A DNA stretch of 41,547 nucleotides, from IMG/VR virus record IMGVR_UViG_3300028833_002727, one strand, 5' to 3'. This DNA comes from a virus (lineage: Duplodnaviria > Heunggongvirae > Uroviricota > Caudoviricetes). Both the position numbers and the translations under genes were made by a program. The notes beneath the pieces were generated by a model. It was not told the origin of the DNA. It did no database searches and saw only the letters and a program-made list of their open reading frames with translations. Below are positions 8,258 through 30,527 of the stretch, piece after piece. The first letter of the stretch is position 1. Each line of letters opens with the position of its first letter.

Positions 8258-8285
8258 CAGTATATAGATAGAACGCAGAGACTCA

Positions 8286-8372
8286 AAGGAAGTAGGTGAA
8301 AGCCCAGAGGAAAAAGGCTCAGAAAGAGCAAAAAAGAAAGGACAAAATTGAAGCGGAAGCGAAGAAAAAGGC
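8286..8372 (+). pseudogene. Frameshifted partial copy of the gene at 24160-24552
   Basis: 87 bp align to 24238-24323 with 4 substitutions and one 1-bp insertion. Confidence 0.9.
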
Positions 8373-8422
8373 AGATGAAAAATTAATATAGTGACAACAG
8401 TTCAAAAACATTTGAGTTAATT

Positions 8423-23905: not shown

Positions 23906-24160
23906 ATGAACGATACATTTGAAAGAGTAAAAAAAGTAGTTGCTTCATATGAGCATAACGGAGAAAATGTTATCATCCACGATTTAGATGATACATTTTA
24001 CAGCGATTTGGGTTTAGATTCCCTTGCTGTTGTTGAGTCTGTAATGTTATGTGAAGAAGAATTTGGAATTGAGTTTACCGACGATGAAATTACAAGAATG
24101 AATACCGTTGGCGATTTGGTAAATTTAATAGATAAGAAATTAGAAAATACGTTTGAGTAA
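23906..24160 (+). CDS. acpP: Acyl carrier protein
   Basis: Acidic 84-aa protein with DLGLDSLAVVE (phosphopantetheine Ser) and EEEFGIEF..D...TVGDL. Confidence 0.9.
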   Translation: MNDTFERVKKVVASYEHNGENVIIHDLDDTFYSDLGLDSLAVVESVMLCEEEFGIEFTDDEITRMNTVGDLVNLIDKKLENTFE

Positions 24161-24552
24161 TGGAAAAGAGTATTAAAGTAGAGAAAGTACAAGAGGAAGT
24201 ACAAGAAGCGGTTGGTGAAATTAGAAACATCGGCTCTAAGGAAGTAGGTGAAAGTCCAGAGGAAAAAGCTCAGAAAGAGCAAGAAAGAAAGGACAAAATT
24301 GAAGCAGAAGCAAAGAAAAAGGCTAAATTGGCTGTTTTTAAAGCATTCCAGACACAACTTTCACAGATTAGAAATGAATTAGCAAAAGGTAAAACACTTG
24401 ATGATGTTATCAACGAAATTAACGAGAAGAAGAGTACTGTATCACGTAGTACAAGAGATTTCTGTTTGAATTTCGAGAAAGATGCTATTCTTGGGTATAT
24501 CAAAGAGTTTGATGCATTAAGAGCAGAACTAAAAAAACTAAGATACCAGTAA
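24160..24552 (+). CDS. Charged helical hypothetical protein (source of the fragment at 8286-8372)
   Basis: TAATG coupling to the ACP gene. Confidence 0.75.
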   Translation: MEKSIKVEKVQEEVQEAVGEIRNIGSKEVGESPEEKAQKEQERKDKIEAEAKKKAKLAVFKAFQTQLSQIRNELAKGKTLDDVINEINEKKSTVSRSTRDFCLNFEKDAILGYIKEFDALRAELKKLRYQ

Positions 24553-25567: not shown

Positions 25568-25990
25568 ATGGGGAAAAATATAACAATAGAAGCAAGGCAA
25601 GCACATTGGAGAGATGTATGTAACGAGTATTTAGAGACGTTCTGTAAAAAACATGAATATACATACGAACCAGATATGTGGGTTGGTAGTGACCCTGGTA
25701 CTATCGCTATGATTGGTGACATGTTTGTAGCAATGCATGATATTCGCTATGACATTGACAATGATGTTGATGAAAAACTATTTGAAGCATGGTACTGGAA
25801 GAGTGTTGATGTGTATGAGTTAACACATATCAACTACATGAACTATGAGAGTTTCTGTAAAGGCGCACCAGATGAGTGGACAAAAGAGAGACTAGATACA
25901 ATTCGAGCAGCGCAGAAAAAAATTGATGATGCTAAAAAAGAATTTGAAAATTTAATCGAAGATTACAAAAAACAAGGTGAATATTTTTAA
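25568..25990 (+). CDS. Hypothetical protein
   Basis: ORF track. Confidence 0.7.
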   Translation: MGKNITIEARQAHWRDVCNEYLETFCKKHEYTYEPDMWVGSDPGTIAMIGDMFVAMHDIRYDIDNDVDEKLFEAWYWKSVDVYELTHINYMNYESFCKGAPDEWTKERLDTIRAAQKKIDDAKKEFENLIEDYKKQGEYF

Positions 25991-25997
25991 TCAAATA

Positions 25998-26031
25998 TTT
26001 GGTTATTTGAAAAAAAAGTGTTACCTTTGCG
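25998..26031 (+). promoter_or_regulatory. Bacteroidota primary-sigma promoter
   Basis: TTTG 25998-26001, 20-nt spacer, TACCTTTG 26022-26029. Confidence 0.85.
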
Positions 26032-26045
26032 ACAGATTTGAAAAT

Positions 26046-26146
26046 AAGTCCCAGGTGGAAAGTAATTCTCAACCAGTCTCCGGACAACATATATTGTGGG
26101 GGAGAAGCATTATATCACGGGAAGTCAACCCCACCTCGGACTTTTT
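26046..26146 (+). ncRNA. Candidate structured RNA or leader (family unknown)
   Basis: AAGTCCCAGGTGG (26046-26058) pairs with CCACCTCGGACTT (26131-26143), 12 of 13 bp; internal hairpin; U-tract; immediately downstream of a promoter. Confidence 0.65.
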
Positions 26147-26160
26147 AGTTTGAAACAACT

Positions 26161-26583
26161 ATGGATAAGAAGTGGATATATTACGGTGTATTTTTCTCTG
26201 ATGTGACAAAAAGAGCGTTGTTTGATTACACAGCAAAATTATCAGTGGAAAAGGGTTTTGTTATTCCAGATGATTGGAAGTTATATGGTGACCACATGAC
26301 GCTTGTTTTCAATGATAGATCAGAGAAAGCACAGGAAGACGCTGAATTTTATGAGGAACAGTTAGTAGGTAAAGATGTTAGCCTACGAGTTACACACGTT
26401 GGTGTATCGGATAGAGCAGTTGCTCTCGGAGTGGATTACCAAACAGCAAACGAACATTCACATATTACCATTGCCATTGCTCCAGATGCGAAACCAGTTG
26501 AAAGTAACGATATTACTAATTGGATGGAAACTAACGGTAGTTTCTATGTTACTGGTAAAGTCAATAAGTTTGTAAAACACTAA
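26161..26583 (+). CDS. 2H phosphoesterase (tRNA-ligase CPDase-like)
   Basis: Two HxT motifs (DHMTL, SHITI) and AKPVESN. Confidence 0.8.
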   Translation: MDKKWIYYGVFFSDVTKRALFDYTAKLSVEKGFVIPDDWKLYGDHMTLVFNDRSEKAQEDAEFYEEQLVGKDVSLRVTHVGVSDRAVALGVDYQTANEHSHITIAIAPDAKPVESNDITNWMETNGSFYVTGKVNKFVKH

Positions 26584-26587
26584 CGAT

Positions 26588-27316
26588 ATGGGAAGATTAA
26601 ATACAAAAATAACAAAAGAATACGATGTTAAGGGTGAACATCCTTTCAGTACTGTATTCGATATGCGAAGAGAGAATGAGACGAAATGGAAGAAAATCCA
26701 ACGTTGGTTCTCTGTTCGCTGGTATGCTTTGGACATAAAGTACCACGAGGTTAAGAAATACTTCAAAAACCTTGTTCGCTTCAATAAAGCAATGTGGAAC
26801 TATTGTCCTTGGGACTACCATTGTCAAGTAGAGTTGTTTGCATATGGGCTTGAAATACTTGCCAATCATATGGATAGATATGGTAACGAAATTGATACTC
26901 CACGTAAGAAGAAAATTGCTGCAATTCGTGAGTTGATTACGTTACTCCGTAATGGTTATGAGGATGAAGTGAACGACAAATATCTTGGCGCTGGTGAAGA
27001 AAACGTTATTACTCATGTAACAGAATATGAGGATGGCAGCATTGGTTTTGAAACTGTGGATGATGAAAGTAAAAAAATTCAAGAGGCGTCAAACAAAGTA
27101 TATAGAGAGGAATATCAAAAAGCGCGTAACGCTTATTATGATAGAATCTTTGCAATTCTTCGTGGACAAGACGACCCTTATGGATTAGCCGAACAAATAC
27201 AAACAAAAATCGGTGAAAAACGCGAAGATGAAACGTATGATGAATATCAAAAACGATATGACGACTGTTACTATGAATTCTTCGACGGCACAGGTATTGA
27301 AGGTTGGTGGGATTAA
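26588..27316 (+). CDS. Hypothetical protein
   Basis: ORF track, 242 aa. Confidence 0.7.
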   Translation: MGRLNTKITKEYDVKGEHPFSTVFDMRRENETKWKKIQRWFSVRWYALDIKYHEVKKYFKNLVRFNKAMWNYCPWDYHCQVELFAYGLEILANHMDRYGNEIDTPRKKKIAAIRELITLLRNGYEDEVNDKYLGAGEENVITHVTEYEDGSIGFETVDDESKKIQEASNKVYREEYQKARNAYYDRIFAILRGQDDPYGLAEQIQTKIGEKREDETYDEYQKRYDDCYYEFFDGTGIEGWWD

Positions 27317-27341
27317 CCATAAAATACAAAAACTAAATGTT

Positions 27342-27470
27342 ATGGATGCTACATACTTAAATAAGTTTCGAAAGAAGAAAAAGAAATTCAGACGGATTAC
27401 TCAGGAAGAGTATGATAGTTTCCATAACTATAACATTGAGTCTAATTCAATAGACAGAGATAGAGAGTAA
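27342..27470 (+). CDS. Small basic hypothetical protein (42 aa)
   Basis: Start revised to ATG 27342. Confidence 0.5.
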   Translation: MDATYLNKFRKKKKKFRRITQEEYDSFHNYNIESNSIDRDRE

Positions 27471-27480
27471 ACATTGTTTA

Positions 27481-28830
27481 ATGGCTACAACATCAAAAAA
27501 TAGGATGGATTATAATAATTATGATTTTTCTGTTGCGTCAACATCACGTAGCAAAAATGAAATAGGAAAACGTGTAGGTATTTTTGGTGGTTCATTCAAT
27601 CCAATTCACATTGGGCATTTTAAAACCGCAGAGTATTTACTTGACAAGGGTTATTTGGATGAGGTTCGCTTCTTACTTAACCCATGTTCTCCGTTCAAAG
27701 TCAAAAACTACATGCCTGACGCTTATTTCAGGTCTATGGCTATCTTGTATGGAATTAACTCACTGCCAGCAAAACAGAAAGCAAAGATGGATTTGGATAC
27801 AACAGAAATGTTGGACTCTATTCAAAACCATGTTTGTTACACCGTAAATACTTTGAAAAAAATCCTATACACGGATATTGAAAACAAAACATTCAATGAG
27901 TATTTCCTTATTGTTGGTGCTGATGTATTCAATAGTATCAAACGTTTCAAGAATTGGAAATGGTTCGTTGATGAAAAACTCGTTAAGTTCATTGTTTTAC
28001 CAAGAGGTGGATACGAAATTGACGAAACATTGCGTGAAGATTTCAAAGATTTAATTGTAGATACAGATTACACTGGATTCAACCCGATTGAACTGTCTTC
28101 TACGGCAGTACGTGAGTGGATTACAAATGGCAACGACACTAAATTAAAAGAAGTACTCGCGCCTGGCACATACAAATACATCACATCCACGAAATTATAT
28201 GGCTATCCGAATAACAACACAATGGAGTTAGCATTACCTGTGAAAGGTAAAAAAACCACAAAACGTGATGTTTATAAACCCCAAGTTTATACGAGGGATG
28301 AATGTAAACAGATGTTGAAATCAGGACGTTATGATTTTGGTTCATCATATGACATTTACATTGATAACGCATTTGGTGTTGTTAAAACAACTATGAACGG
28401 CGGATATACACGATACAACGTGTATGACTATTCAACTGGCGAAGTTGTATGTGACGAGTGGTTCAAGAGTGTTGGTAAGCCAAGAACGTTCGATGAACGT
28501 AAAATGGCACCTGATAATAATTTCAATTTCCAACACGATTACGAACGATTCAATACAAAAATGTTTGAAACTGATAATTCAACTTATTATTGTATTGTGG
28601 ATACAAATTTGAAAGTGACAGTTGGACGTGACCAGGTTGAAACTGCAAAGAATGTACTTGTATTCAACCATGATTCATGTTACTATCTATTCAAAGATTG
28701 TGTAATTGGTAACAATTTCATCACAAGGATAGAAAATAGTGGTGTATATGGCGTTGTTTTCATTACATTGAATAATGGAACGCAAATAGAATATAACCTT
28801 ATAAAAGGTACAAACAAAATAGTAAAATAA
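27481..28830 (+). CDS. nadD: Nicotinate/nicotinamide mononucleotide adenylyltransferase with a ~200-aa C-terminal extension
   Basis: GIFGGSFNPIHIGH (HIGH motif), IVGAD, LPRGGY, ELSSTAVRE. Confidence 0.88.
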   Translation: MATTSKNRMDYNNYDFSVASTSRSKNEIGKRVGIFGGSFNPIHIGHFKTAEYLLDKGYLDEVRFLLNPCSPFKVKNYMPDAYFRSMAILYGINSLPAKQKAKMDLDTTEMLDSIQNHVCYTVNTLKKILYTDIENKTFNEYFLIVGADVFNSIKRFKNWKWFVDEKLVKFIVLPRGGYEIDETLREDFKDLIVDTDYTGFNPIELSSTAVREWITNGNDTKLKEVLAPGTYKYITSTKLYGYPNNNTMELALPVKGKKTTKRDVYKPQVYTRDECKQMLKSGRYDFGSSYDIYIDNAFGVVKTTMNGGYTRYNVYDYSTGEVVCDEWFKSVGKPRTFDERKMAPDNNFNFQHDYERFNTKMFETDNSTYYCIVDTNLKVTVGRDQVETAKNVLVFNHDSCYYLFKDCVIGNNFITRIENSGVYGVVFITLNNGTQIEYNLIKGTNKIVK

Positions 28831-28844
28831 ATACAACAGAGAAT

Positions 28845-29594
28845 ATGGATAAATTTGACGCAAAAAAAGTAACCGAACAACTCATACAAGGTATAAGAGA
28901 TTGGTTCGAAAGAAATGGTAATGGATGTAATGCGTGCGTTGGAATGTCTGGTGGTAAAGATAGTACAATTGTTGCAGCATTGTGTGTTAAAGCGTTAGGC
29001 GCCGATAGAGTAATCGGCGTTGGTATTCCAGACAAAGGACAAGATTTACATGAGGCAGATGAAATTGCTAAACATTTTGGAATACAATTTCATGTGGTAA
29101 ATATTGGAAGTATCACCGACGCAATTAAGCAAGAAACATATTATGGCGGTAATGTACGATTGTCCGAACAAGCAGAACAAAATATTCCGCCACGTGTGCG
29201 TATGCTAATTTTGTATGCAATTTCGCAATCTAACAACGGACGTGTTGTTGGTACATGTAATGCAAGTGAGAACTACATTGGTTATTTCACTAAATATGGT
29301 GATGGCGCATCCGACTTCGAGCCTATCGCTGAATTGACGGTACATGAGTTGTACCAGGTTGGTGATGAGTTGGGTATTCCGAAAAAATGGACGTACAAGA
29401 CTCCTGATGACGGACTACCTCACAGTATGCCAGATGATGAGAAGTTTGAAAAGAAAGGTTTCAACTATGAGAAGTTAGATAAATATATCCGCTTGGGAAC
29501 CAGTGGTGATGCTGTTGCTGATGCTGCTATCGAGAAAATGCACGCTCAGAACGCATTCAAAATGAAACCTGTAGAGGTAATAAAATTCAATTAA
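28845..29594 (+). CDS. nadE: NH3-dependent NAD+ synthetase
   Basis: VGMSGGKDS, RVRM..LYA, GTCNASE.YIGYFTKYGDG; no glutaminase domain. Confidence 0.95.
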   Translation: MDKFDAKKVTEQLIQGIRDWFERNGNGCNACVGMSGGKDSTIVAALCVKALGADRVIGVGIPDKGQDLHEADEIAKHFGIQFHVVNIGSITDAIKQETYYGGNVRLSEQAEQNIPPRVRMLILYAISQSNNGRVVGTCNASENYIGYFTKYGDGASDFEPIAELTVHELYQVGDELGIPKKWTYKTPDDGLPHSMPDDEKFEKKGFNYEKLDKYIRLGTSGDAVADAAIEKMHAQNAFKMKPVEVIKFN

Positions 29595-29599
29595 GATAT

Positions 29600-30499
29600 A
29601 TGAAGAAATTATTTATACTTTCCGGAGTACCTTGCTCAGGAAAATCAACTTGGGCGAAAGAATATAAACAAAACGTTGACACAAATGTTGTTATTGGCAA
29701 CCGTGATACTATCCGTTACGAACTTGGTAACGGTAAATACGTGCAGGATCAGGAAGATGAAGTAACACGTATCGAAACTGAACGTGTTGAGAATGGTATG
29801 AAGGCTGGTTTAACAGTCATCCTTGATGATACCAACCTTAATCCTAAATACATTAAGCCGTGGTATGATATGGCTGAAAAGTATGGGTATGAGGTTGAGG
29901 AAAAAGAGTTCTACATTCCATACCAGCAAGCAATGAAACGTTCCAAAGCGCGTAAGGCTGAGGGTGGTTTATACATACCGAAAGAAGTAATGCAGAGGTT
30001 CTACAAACGTTACTACAAAGAAGAGTTTGAAAAAGAACTTACCGATTACCGTGTATTCAACACTGTAAAATGGGAAGATGATTTACCAACCTGCATTATT
30101 TGTGACTTGGATGGTACATTAGCAATGCACACCGGGCGTACACCATTTGAGTGGGATAGGTTAGATGAAGACAAAATTGATAAGCGTCTTGCATTAATGT
30201 TGGAAATTTACGTTAACAATATTGATGACTGTGAGGTTATATTCCTAACGGGGCGTCCAGATAGTGCGCGTGAAGCAACTGAAAACTGGCTTAAAAAGAA
30301 TTTTAATGCACCTTATACATTACTCATGCGCGATAGTAGCGACTACAGTCATGGATATGATGCAAAAAAGAAAATCTACGAAGACTACATCAAAGGAAAG
30401 TACAATGTCCTATGTGTTTTCGAAGATTCTAACAAGTGTGTAGACATGTGGAGGGAGCAAGGACTCTTAACACTGCAAGTTCAAAATGGGGATTACTAA
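29600..30499 (+). CDS. pseT: Polynucleotide 5'-kinase / 3'-phosphatase (T4 PseT-like)
   Basis: P-loop GVPCSGKST, RD, DDTNL; HAD domain DLDGT, TGR, FED...VDMWR. Confidence 0.92.
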   Translation: MKKLFILSGVPCSGKSTWAKEYKQNVDTNVVIGNRDTIRYELGNGKYVQDQEDEVTRIETERVENGMKAGLTVILDDTNLNPKYIKPWYDMAEKYGYEVEEKEFYIPYQQAMKRSKARKAEGGLYIPKEVMQRFYKRYYKEEFEKELTDYRVFNTVKWEDDLPTCIICDLDGTLAMHTGRTPFEWDRLDEDKIDKRLALMLEIYVNNIDDCEVIFLTGRPDSAREATENWLKKNFNAPYTLLMRDSSDYSHGYDAKKKIYEDYIKGKYNVLCVFEDSNKCVDMWREQGLLTLQVQNGDY

Positions 30500-30517
30500 C
30501 AATCTCCATTTTTTTTT
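30485..30517 (+). terminator. Intrinsic terminator overlapping the pseT stop
   Basis: 10-bp stem AATGGGGATT / AATCTCCATT (one G-U), loop ACTAAC, T7. Confidence 0.75.
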
Positions 30518-30527
30518 GTATATTTAC
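30518..30527 (+). promoter_or_regulatory. GTATATTTAC motif (second promoter class)
   Basis: Abuts the terminator and precedes ATG 30563. Confidence 0.45.

Follow-up and report, generated by a model that had tools for sequence, protein, structure and literature searches.

An extremely conserved leader, very likely a functional RNA, before the RNA-repair and NAD-synthesis operon of a Bacteroidota jumbo phage

Introduction

At the entry of a repair/NAD operon of a Bacteroidota jumbo phage we found a single-copy, non-coding element that is very likely functional and tied to that position. It is a leader of about 100 bases and, judging from its conservation, it is very likely an RNA of an undescribed kind. 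Our preferred reading, to which we give a probability of about 0.35, is that it acts in cis as a conditional (leaky or regulated) intrinsic terminator that gates an operon coding for a 2H phosphodiesterase, a NadD-like protein, NadE and a polynucleotide kinase-phosphatase (PNK).

RNA-repair and NAD-replenishing genes are found in jumbo phages, where they are thought to counter host abortive-infection systems (PMC7824862). The same paper treats, in jumbo phages, the pairing of a fungal-type healing and sealing pathway with NAD supply. The element outconserves the enzymes that it precedes, stands at the entry of their operon and belongs to no described family, which makes it a concrete candidate for the control of the repair and NAD genes. 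Binding of a small molecule or of damaged RNA would make the leader a sensor, carried by the phage, of the activity of host defences; as a small RNA acting in trans, it would add to a set of non-coding RNAs that is unusually rich in this group of phages. Either way, the size of the element puts direct biochemical tests within reach.

The DNA that was analysed, referred to as the window, is a stretch of 41,547 nucleotides. It is part of the IMG/VR record IMGVR_UViG_3300028833_002727, which has a length of 183.6 kb and is estimated to be 54% complete, so that the phage genome would measure about 340 kb.

Results

Promoter and genes around the leader

The genes near the leader RNA all lie on the + strand. 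The features on either side of the conserved element are as follows.

25998-26030, + strand: Bacteroidota-type promoter with -33 TTTG and -7 TACCTTTG (26022-26029), one of five near-identical copies in the window
26034-26045, + strand: short variable 5′ leader ahead of the element and site of an indel (from the alignment and from the L031 sequence and ORFs)
26147-26160, + strand: variable A/T-rich spacer to the start codon, outside the conserved element (haplotype alignment)
26161-26583, + strand: 2H/cyclic-phosphodiesterase gene, 140 aa, the first gene of the unit (PF08302, E 3e-07)
26588-30499, + strand: gene of a 242-aa protein and the rest of the unit through PNK (profile searches)
27481-28830, + strand: gene of a 449-aa protein with a NadD-like adenylyltransferase domain (profile search)
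28845-29594, + strand: NadE gene (E 3e-49)
29600-30499, + strand: PNK gene (phrog_505, E 3e-80)
30483-30522, + strand: strong canonical terminator closing the unit, with a 12-bp stem and then a long T-run, overlapping the PNK stop codon

The primary-sigma promoters of Bacteroidota have the layout -33 TTTG / -7 TAnnTTTG, and the five copies in the window share a box of about 50 nt, made up of TTTGGTTATTTGAAA, a spacer and TAnnTTTGC. The promoter ahead of the leader is kept by every relative whose contig extends there and, from the known geometry of the -7 box, transcription would start at about 26034-26036. An earlier note on this DNA had pointed to an unusually long gap between this promoter and its gene and to a GC-richer composition of the extra DNA, and both were borne out. 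Here 132 nt separate the end of the -7 box from the first credible ATG, compared to 28, 22, 27 and 28 nt at the four sister promoters, and the GC content is 0.47 at 26050-26149, compared to about 0.23-0.39 in the flanks.

The close relatives of the phage (contigs labelled L) come from pig-gut and rumen assemblies. The distance from the leader element to the ATG of the 2H gene is 14-17 nt in every haplotype, whether or not the promoter is adjacent, and the spacer itself is divergent throughout in L006 and L027, which also have a 3-nt insertion in it. Since an 89-aa ORF separates the promoter from the leader RNA in L031, the constant neighbour of the RNA is the 2H gene and not the promoter. The earlier note had described the leader as promoter-proximal, which is correct for the window but is not a constant property of the element.

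The 89-aa ORF (L031:1422-1691, - strand) is without a Pfam or NCBIfam match. In the L015 group its remnant at L015:1340-1385 consists only of ATGAAAGAAAAATAG, a 31-nt insert with the first four codons and the stop, and there is no trace of the ORF in the window and in three other haplotypes; L031, the L015 group and the window appear to capture a single loss (or gain) of this gene at one site in three stages. The L015 group also has an extra gene, missing from the window, inserted between the upstream 140-aa gene and the promoter. It encodes a 342-aa BspA-type leucine-rich-repeat (LRR) protein (L015:273-1301; PF13306, E 1.5e-74, plus DUF7666). The relatives that were found of the upstream 140-aa gene are not syntenic.

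Within the unit, both H-x-T motifs of the 2H protein are invariant in an alignment of 30 homologs, and the 242-aa protein (26588-27316) is conserved in close relatives and has no match to any family. The first 240 residues of the 449-aa protein resemble nicotinate-nucleotide adenylyltransferase with an E-value of 2e-26, which is under the curated cut-off, and the C-terminal residues, about 200 in number, match no family and are conserved in close relatives. No IMG/VR relatives were found of the 2H protein alone or of the 449-aa protein, and a scan of GTDB genomes for NadE gave only Mycoplasmataceae and Pacearchaeota MAGs. In a 51-kb relative (L008:2652-5796), the 2H homolog is flanked by genes for an HD-domain polynucleotide kinase and a CCA-adding (PolyA_pol) enzyme, an RlaP nucleotidyltransferase being encoded close by, and this locus is a different tRNA-repair neighbourhood of the same 2H family.

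Conservation of the leader

The leader was compared across contigs of the 2H protein clusters of a large protein collection (72 members at at least 90% identity, and a second cluster at 88%) and two JGI/GenBank metagenome contigs found by DNA pattern. This gave seven distinct leader haplotypes from pig gut and rumen, which may amount to five or six lineages within a single narrow clade. Their alignment defines the following feature.

26055-26136, + strand: ultra-conserved core of 82 nt (seven-haplotype alignment)

The core has one substitution in the seven haplotypes, T26090C in L031, which sits in the loop of the inner hairpin described below, and its only length change is in the G-run at 26098-26102, which has 5, 6 or 7 G. 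In the adjacent 2H coding sequence, 93 of the 423 sites segregate across the same haplotypes, 65 of the 141 third positions are variable and every 81-nt segment contains at least 10 segregating sites; its DNA divergence from the window is 9.5% in L005 and 15.4% in L006. At the rate of the coding sequence (0.22 per site), finding at most one variable position in 82 has a probability of about 3e-8, by our own arithmetic, which ignores the tree. The predicted single-stranded stretches of the core are invariant too, as are AAGT (26046-49), GTGG (26055-58) and GACTTTTTA (26139-47), and the sequence beyond the element is freely variable on both sides.

This constraint is not protein-coding, because the G-runs of 5, 6 and 7 shift every frame. 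The only ORF that spans the core is 36 aa long with a TTG start, and the changes at its ends are all non-synonymous, with an unchanged middle. A small protein-coding gene was rejected on both these grounds. The leader is evidently under much stronger purifying selection than the adjoining gene, which makes a functional RNA, either a small RNA or an attenuator, a reasonable reading. The earlier note had proposed such an RNA, and the element is real and non-coding, with one substitution in 82 nt against 93 variable sites in the 423 of the coding sequence.

The identity of the core could instead result from recent spread, either as a mobile, MITE-like insertion bounded by terminal inverted repeats of 13 bp, which the two arms of the stem described below resemble, or as a recently exchanged recombination patch, and the more distant relatives do lack the element. 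However, variation returns 1-2 nt past the core edges (26054 and 26137) in several independent haplotypes, and edges as sharp as these favour selection over a recombination patch. The element has no target-site duplication and occupies the orthologous position in all seven haplotypes, and the putative repeats are its only variable part around an invariant interior, which is the reverse of what is seen in MITEs. It is single-copy in the 183.6-kb record and absent from IMG/VR, from JGI metagenomes outside the clade and from GTDB genomes. Recent spread is thus already largely refuted, and we consider it highly improbable; a repeat or MITE-like insertion, which the earlier note had named as a possible objection, does not describe an element that is single-copy in its record and missing outside the clade from the collections searched.

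Pairing possibilities of the leader

The helices that the leader sequence allows are built from the following parts.

26046-26058, + strand: 5′ arm of the long stem, AAGTCCCAGGTGG, with positions 26050, 26051 and 26054 variable
26131-26146, + strand: 3′ arm of the long stem, CCACCTCGGACTT (26131-26143), running into the T-run at 26142-26146, with 26137-26138 variable
26077-26105, + strand: inner hairpin, TCTCC (26077-81) with GGAGA (26101-05) and ACAA (26084-87) with TTGT (26094-97), loop CATATA
26115-26122, + strand: internal alternative partner of the 5′ arm, TCACGGGA, forming helix i (from prefix folds and haplotype variation)

The 12/13 stem, the U-tract and the inner hairpin to which the earlier note had drawn attention are all present. 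The long stem pairs 12 of 13 positions, with a mismatch between C26052 and C26137, and encloses 72 nt. It is part of the MFE structure of all seven haplotypes (-25 to -31 kcal/mol), with a pair probability above 0.9. For the inner hairpin, the MFE favours a register-shifted rival, TTCTC (26066-70) with GAGAA (26102-06). An ungapped 12/13 stem anywhere in the 127-nt leader was obtained in 3 of 400 dinucleotide shuffles, and the MFE z-score was -2.6 for exactly 26046-26147 (1 of 200 shuffles) and -1.2 to -1.6 at other boundaries. Such a stem is uncommon by chance and the folding energy is only moderately unusual, and the structure signal is therefore modest; the strong signal is the conservation.

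The relatives were also examined for covariation, a check that the earlier note had proposed, and no compensatory pair (0) was found in any helix across the seven haplotypes. Covariation is absent because the core barely varies, and without a compensatory change no helix is proven. In the long-stem structure, 143 of 147 cells pair across the haplotypes: C26050U and C26051U lead to U.G wobbles, and G26054A, G26054C, G26138U and G26138A break pairs, so that the middle of the stem loses one or two pairs in four of the seven haplotypes. There are three U.G wobble cells, which are valid on the + strand only. The middle of the long stem is evidently the sole part of the element that is free to change.

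The earlier note had also proposed mutually exclusive folds, and this proposal holds in part. The second partners that it named exist in the sequence, GTGGGG (26096-101) with CCCCAC (26129-34) and AAGTC (26122-26) with GACTT (26139-43). However, the two alternatives have energies of -24.6 and -21.7 kcal/mol, compared to -32.3 kcal/mol for the long stem, and a pair probability of about 0, and so they are not competitive at equilibrium. The two-state idea survives in an altered form, in which the 5′ arm pairs with 26115-26122. In this helix i, 26049-52 and 26055-58 pair with 26115-26122, and A26053 and N26054 are bulged. Helix i forms in prefix folds ahead of the synthesis of the 3′ arm, and the arrangement includes a small hairpin (26122-26 with 26139-43) just 5′ of the U-run. 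All of its cells are paired (147/147), the variable sites being without exception wobble-compatible, bulged or looped, and the helix-i arrangement thus accommodates the variation among the haplotypes better than the long stem; this preference is only mild, since it is based on four mutational events. In stability, the alternative state falls short of the long stem by about 10 kcal/mol. With alternatives that are 8-10 kcal/mol weaker and have a probability near zero, any switching would require either kinetic control or the binding of a factor.

These energetically poor alternative folds, together with the tolerated mismatches in the middle of the stem, would also fit a passive mRNA structure that senses nothing: a 5′ stabiliser, an RNase processing site between ORF89 and the 2H message, or a vestigial terminator. 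In L031 the leader does lie between two genes, like an intercistronic element. Nevertheless, a hairpin needs pairing and not a particular sequence, and a passive structure leaves unexplained why 82 nt are invariant, loops and joining regions included, when synonymous sites next door vary (65/141 third positions). We consider a passive structure unlikely.

We also weighed a constraint at the level of the DNA, such as an array of operators or some other site for protein binding or recombination immediately after the promoter. The inner hairpin doubles as an inverted repeat in the DNA, the fold energy is equal on both strands (the minus strand has an equally good MFE z-score of -2.6), and the locus is an indel hot spot, in which ORF89 is present, a remnant or absent and the L015 group has its LRR gene upstream. 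Operators, however, cover 15-30 bp and not 82, the element stays beside the 2H gene and not beside the promoter once the two are separated, and the wobble-type changes fit the pairing of an RNA made from the + strand. A DNA site is improbable, and less probable than a passive structure.

Searches for related RNAs

A search of the whole window with Rfam 15 (4227 models) at gathering thresholds gave 0 matches, and at E-values up to 10 the only matches in 25900-26300 lay outside the element and were at chance level. The Rfam search suggested in the earlier note therefore assigned no family to the leader element. The nadA motif NAD+ riboswitch (RF03013) had no match at E up to 10 in the whole 183.6-kb record, and a nadA-type identity was rejected on this basis; a tRNA or tmRNA identity was rejected because ARAGORN called 0 of either in the window. 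In an informal hand comparison, the leader showed no convincing fit to SRP RNA domain IV, an HDV-like fold, the hammerhead core, a Cas13b repeat or the 3′ half of a tRNA.

Neither BLAST nor a covariance model detected a second copy of the leader in the 183.6-kb record. The leader does not resemble the other small RNAs of the record in sequence, and its complementarity to the phage tRNAs and tmRNA is no better than that of shuffled sequence. GenBank phages gave no DNA match to the locus, and four DNA patterns (the stem, both core halves and the 5′ joining region) returned from IMG/VR either nothing or three chance matches in ATP-grasp-like coding regions. A DNA pattern search of JGI metagenomes yielded two further members of the same clade only, and the core pattern had no match in GTDB genomes. 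When the covariance model R1 was run on 18 related jumbo-phage records, it found only noise, with a best score of 20.7 bits, and the E-values of this home-made model are rough; the noise matches fell within coding sequence, tRNA arrays or an ordinary terminator hairpin. Relatives whose 2H protein is 50-65% identical have no leader, and their 2H gene overlaps or abuts the preceding gene. As far as the searched sequences go, the leader is without a homolog outside one narrow clade.

Discussion

A proposed conditional terminator in cis

No second promoter is found between the leader element and the 2H gene. The expression of the operon must therefore cross the U-run, and this excludes a strong constitutive terminator. 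In the conditional terminator that we prefer, an RNA is presumably made from the upstream promoter, with transcription beginning about 12 nt ahead of the element. The 5′ arm (26046-58) would first pair with the internal segment 26115-26122 and close a rod-like core of 74 nt. Alternatively, the 3′ arm (26131-43) would capture the 5′ arm, which would give the 12-bp stem ending in the U-run (26142-46), and RNA polymerase would stop at the U-run, 15 nt short of the 2H start codon. The balance between the two states would depend on a factor (a metabolite, a protein of the phage or host, or a further RNA) that recognises the invariant core, and this balance would determine the dose of the RNA-repair and NAD-synthesis enzymes.

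We rank the conditional terminator first because the operon is without another promoter, because the stem and the U-run are invariant and because the 5′ arm has two exclusive partners in a sensible order of transcription. The stem (12/13, probability >0.9) runs into 5 U but encloses 72 nt. Several findings argue against this reading. The U-run has just five U, two of which are inside the stem, and a simple terminator scan makes no call. There is no compensatory change, and mid-stem pairs are broken in four of the seven haplotypes; the folding signal is modest and equal on both strands, and the alternative state is weaker by about 10 kcal/mol. Lastly, no homolog occurs outside the narrow clade, and 2H genes at 50-65% identity are leaderless. 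The phage's own intrinsic terminator at 30483-30522 likewise has a stem and then a T-run on the coding strand; it differs from the leader stem in its loop (3-8 nt, compared to 72 nt enclosed), its T-run (about 9, compared to 5) and its place after and not before the operon.

Leaders of the riboswitch or attenuator type, and in particular those of the NAD+ class I (nadA, RF03013), resemble this one in that they are 5′ leaders directly upstream of NAD-synthesis genes, with a GC-richer conserved core, a stem that leads into a U-run and a 5′ arm that can pair with either of two mutually exclusive partners. The leader differs from the NAD+ class I riboswitch in having no RF03013 match and no covariation and in being limited to one narrow phage clade. 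It also differs from riboswitches in that its conservation spans almost every base and not just a binding pocket; conservation is extreme, and the number of compensatory pairs is 0. An NAD-related ligand, which the earlier note had suggested, is reasonable from the context and is pure inference. More specifically, the core may be the sensor domain of a new riboswitch-like class, gating a counter-defence operon (tRNA/RNA end-healing and renewed synthesis of NAD+) on a signal that the host is attacking; NAD-pathway metabolites, ADP-ribose derivatives, 2′,3′-cyclic nucleotides and damaged tRNA are candidates for this signal. We give this extension long odds, between those of a passive structure and those of a DNA site.

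The processive antitermination RNAs HK022 put and Bacillus EAR are conserved and structured and act in cis early in a long transcript of a phage or operon, as the leader would. They differ from it in that neither architecture is evident in the leader, that there is no Rfam match and that the element is present at only one of the five sister promoters.

A discrete small RNA as a possible alternative

The second possibility, which we rank just behind the conditional terminator and regard as nearly as likely, is that the leader constitutes a separate gene for a small RNA of about 110-115 nt that acts in trans, for example as a decoy, as a sponge or with a host or phage protein partner, and that read-through expresses the operon. 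Such an RNA would have its 5′ and 3′ ends in the closing stem, with a weak terminator after it, and would arise from the early host-type promoter or, in L031-type genomes, be processed out of the 3′ end of the transcript of ORF89. Stable small RNAs usually have a closing stem with a U-run, the invariant single-stranded stretches would suit recognition by a protein or RNA partner, and the record encodes 33 tRNAs and a tmRNA. On the other hand, the element lies 14-17 nt from the start codon with no promoter between, and a good terminator at this position would silence an operon that is presumably needed. Also, the leader has no likeness to the other small RNAs of the record and no Rfam family match, and no partner gene was identified.

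Y RNAs of the YrlA type and other stable small RNAs share with the leader a length of about 100 nt, a stem closing the 5′ and 3′ ends and a phage rich in RNA-repair genes and tRNA-like RNAs. In contrast to YrlA Y RNAs, however, the leader is without a T-arm-like module and an Rfam YrlA match and is not beside a Ro60/TROVE gene. A search of the record for Ro60/TROVE (PF05731) gave no match. A Y RNA of the YrlA type was rejected, given no Rfam match, the absence of PF05731 from the record and neighbours that encode the 2H, NadD-like, NadE and PNK proteins.

Other small RNAs and repeats of the phage

The 33 tRNAs and 1 tmRNA that ARAGORN called elsewhere in the record, the latter with the tag GERTYALAA, lie outside the window in a single island of 22 kb (G000:C1:54155-76766). 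A related 380-kb record has, at L057:1600-1700 within a tRNA array, a tRNA-like 3′ end with the T-arm GGGGGTTCGAGTCCC and CCA, not called by ARAGORN, which may belong to an interrupted or unusual tRNA. Finally, in the window, a segment of about 92 nt in the gap between two genes (8282-8373) is 93-94% identical, with one 1-nt indel, to 24234-24324, which is part of the coding sequence 24160-24552; judging by this match, the segment at 8282-8373 seems to be a fragment of a gene that was displaced, or a scar left by recombination.
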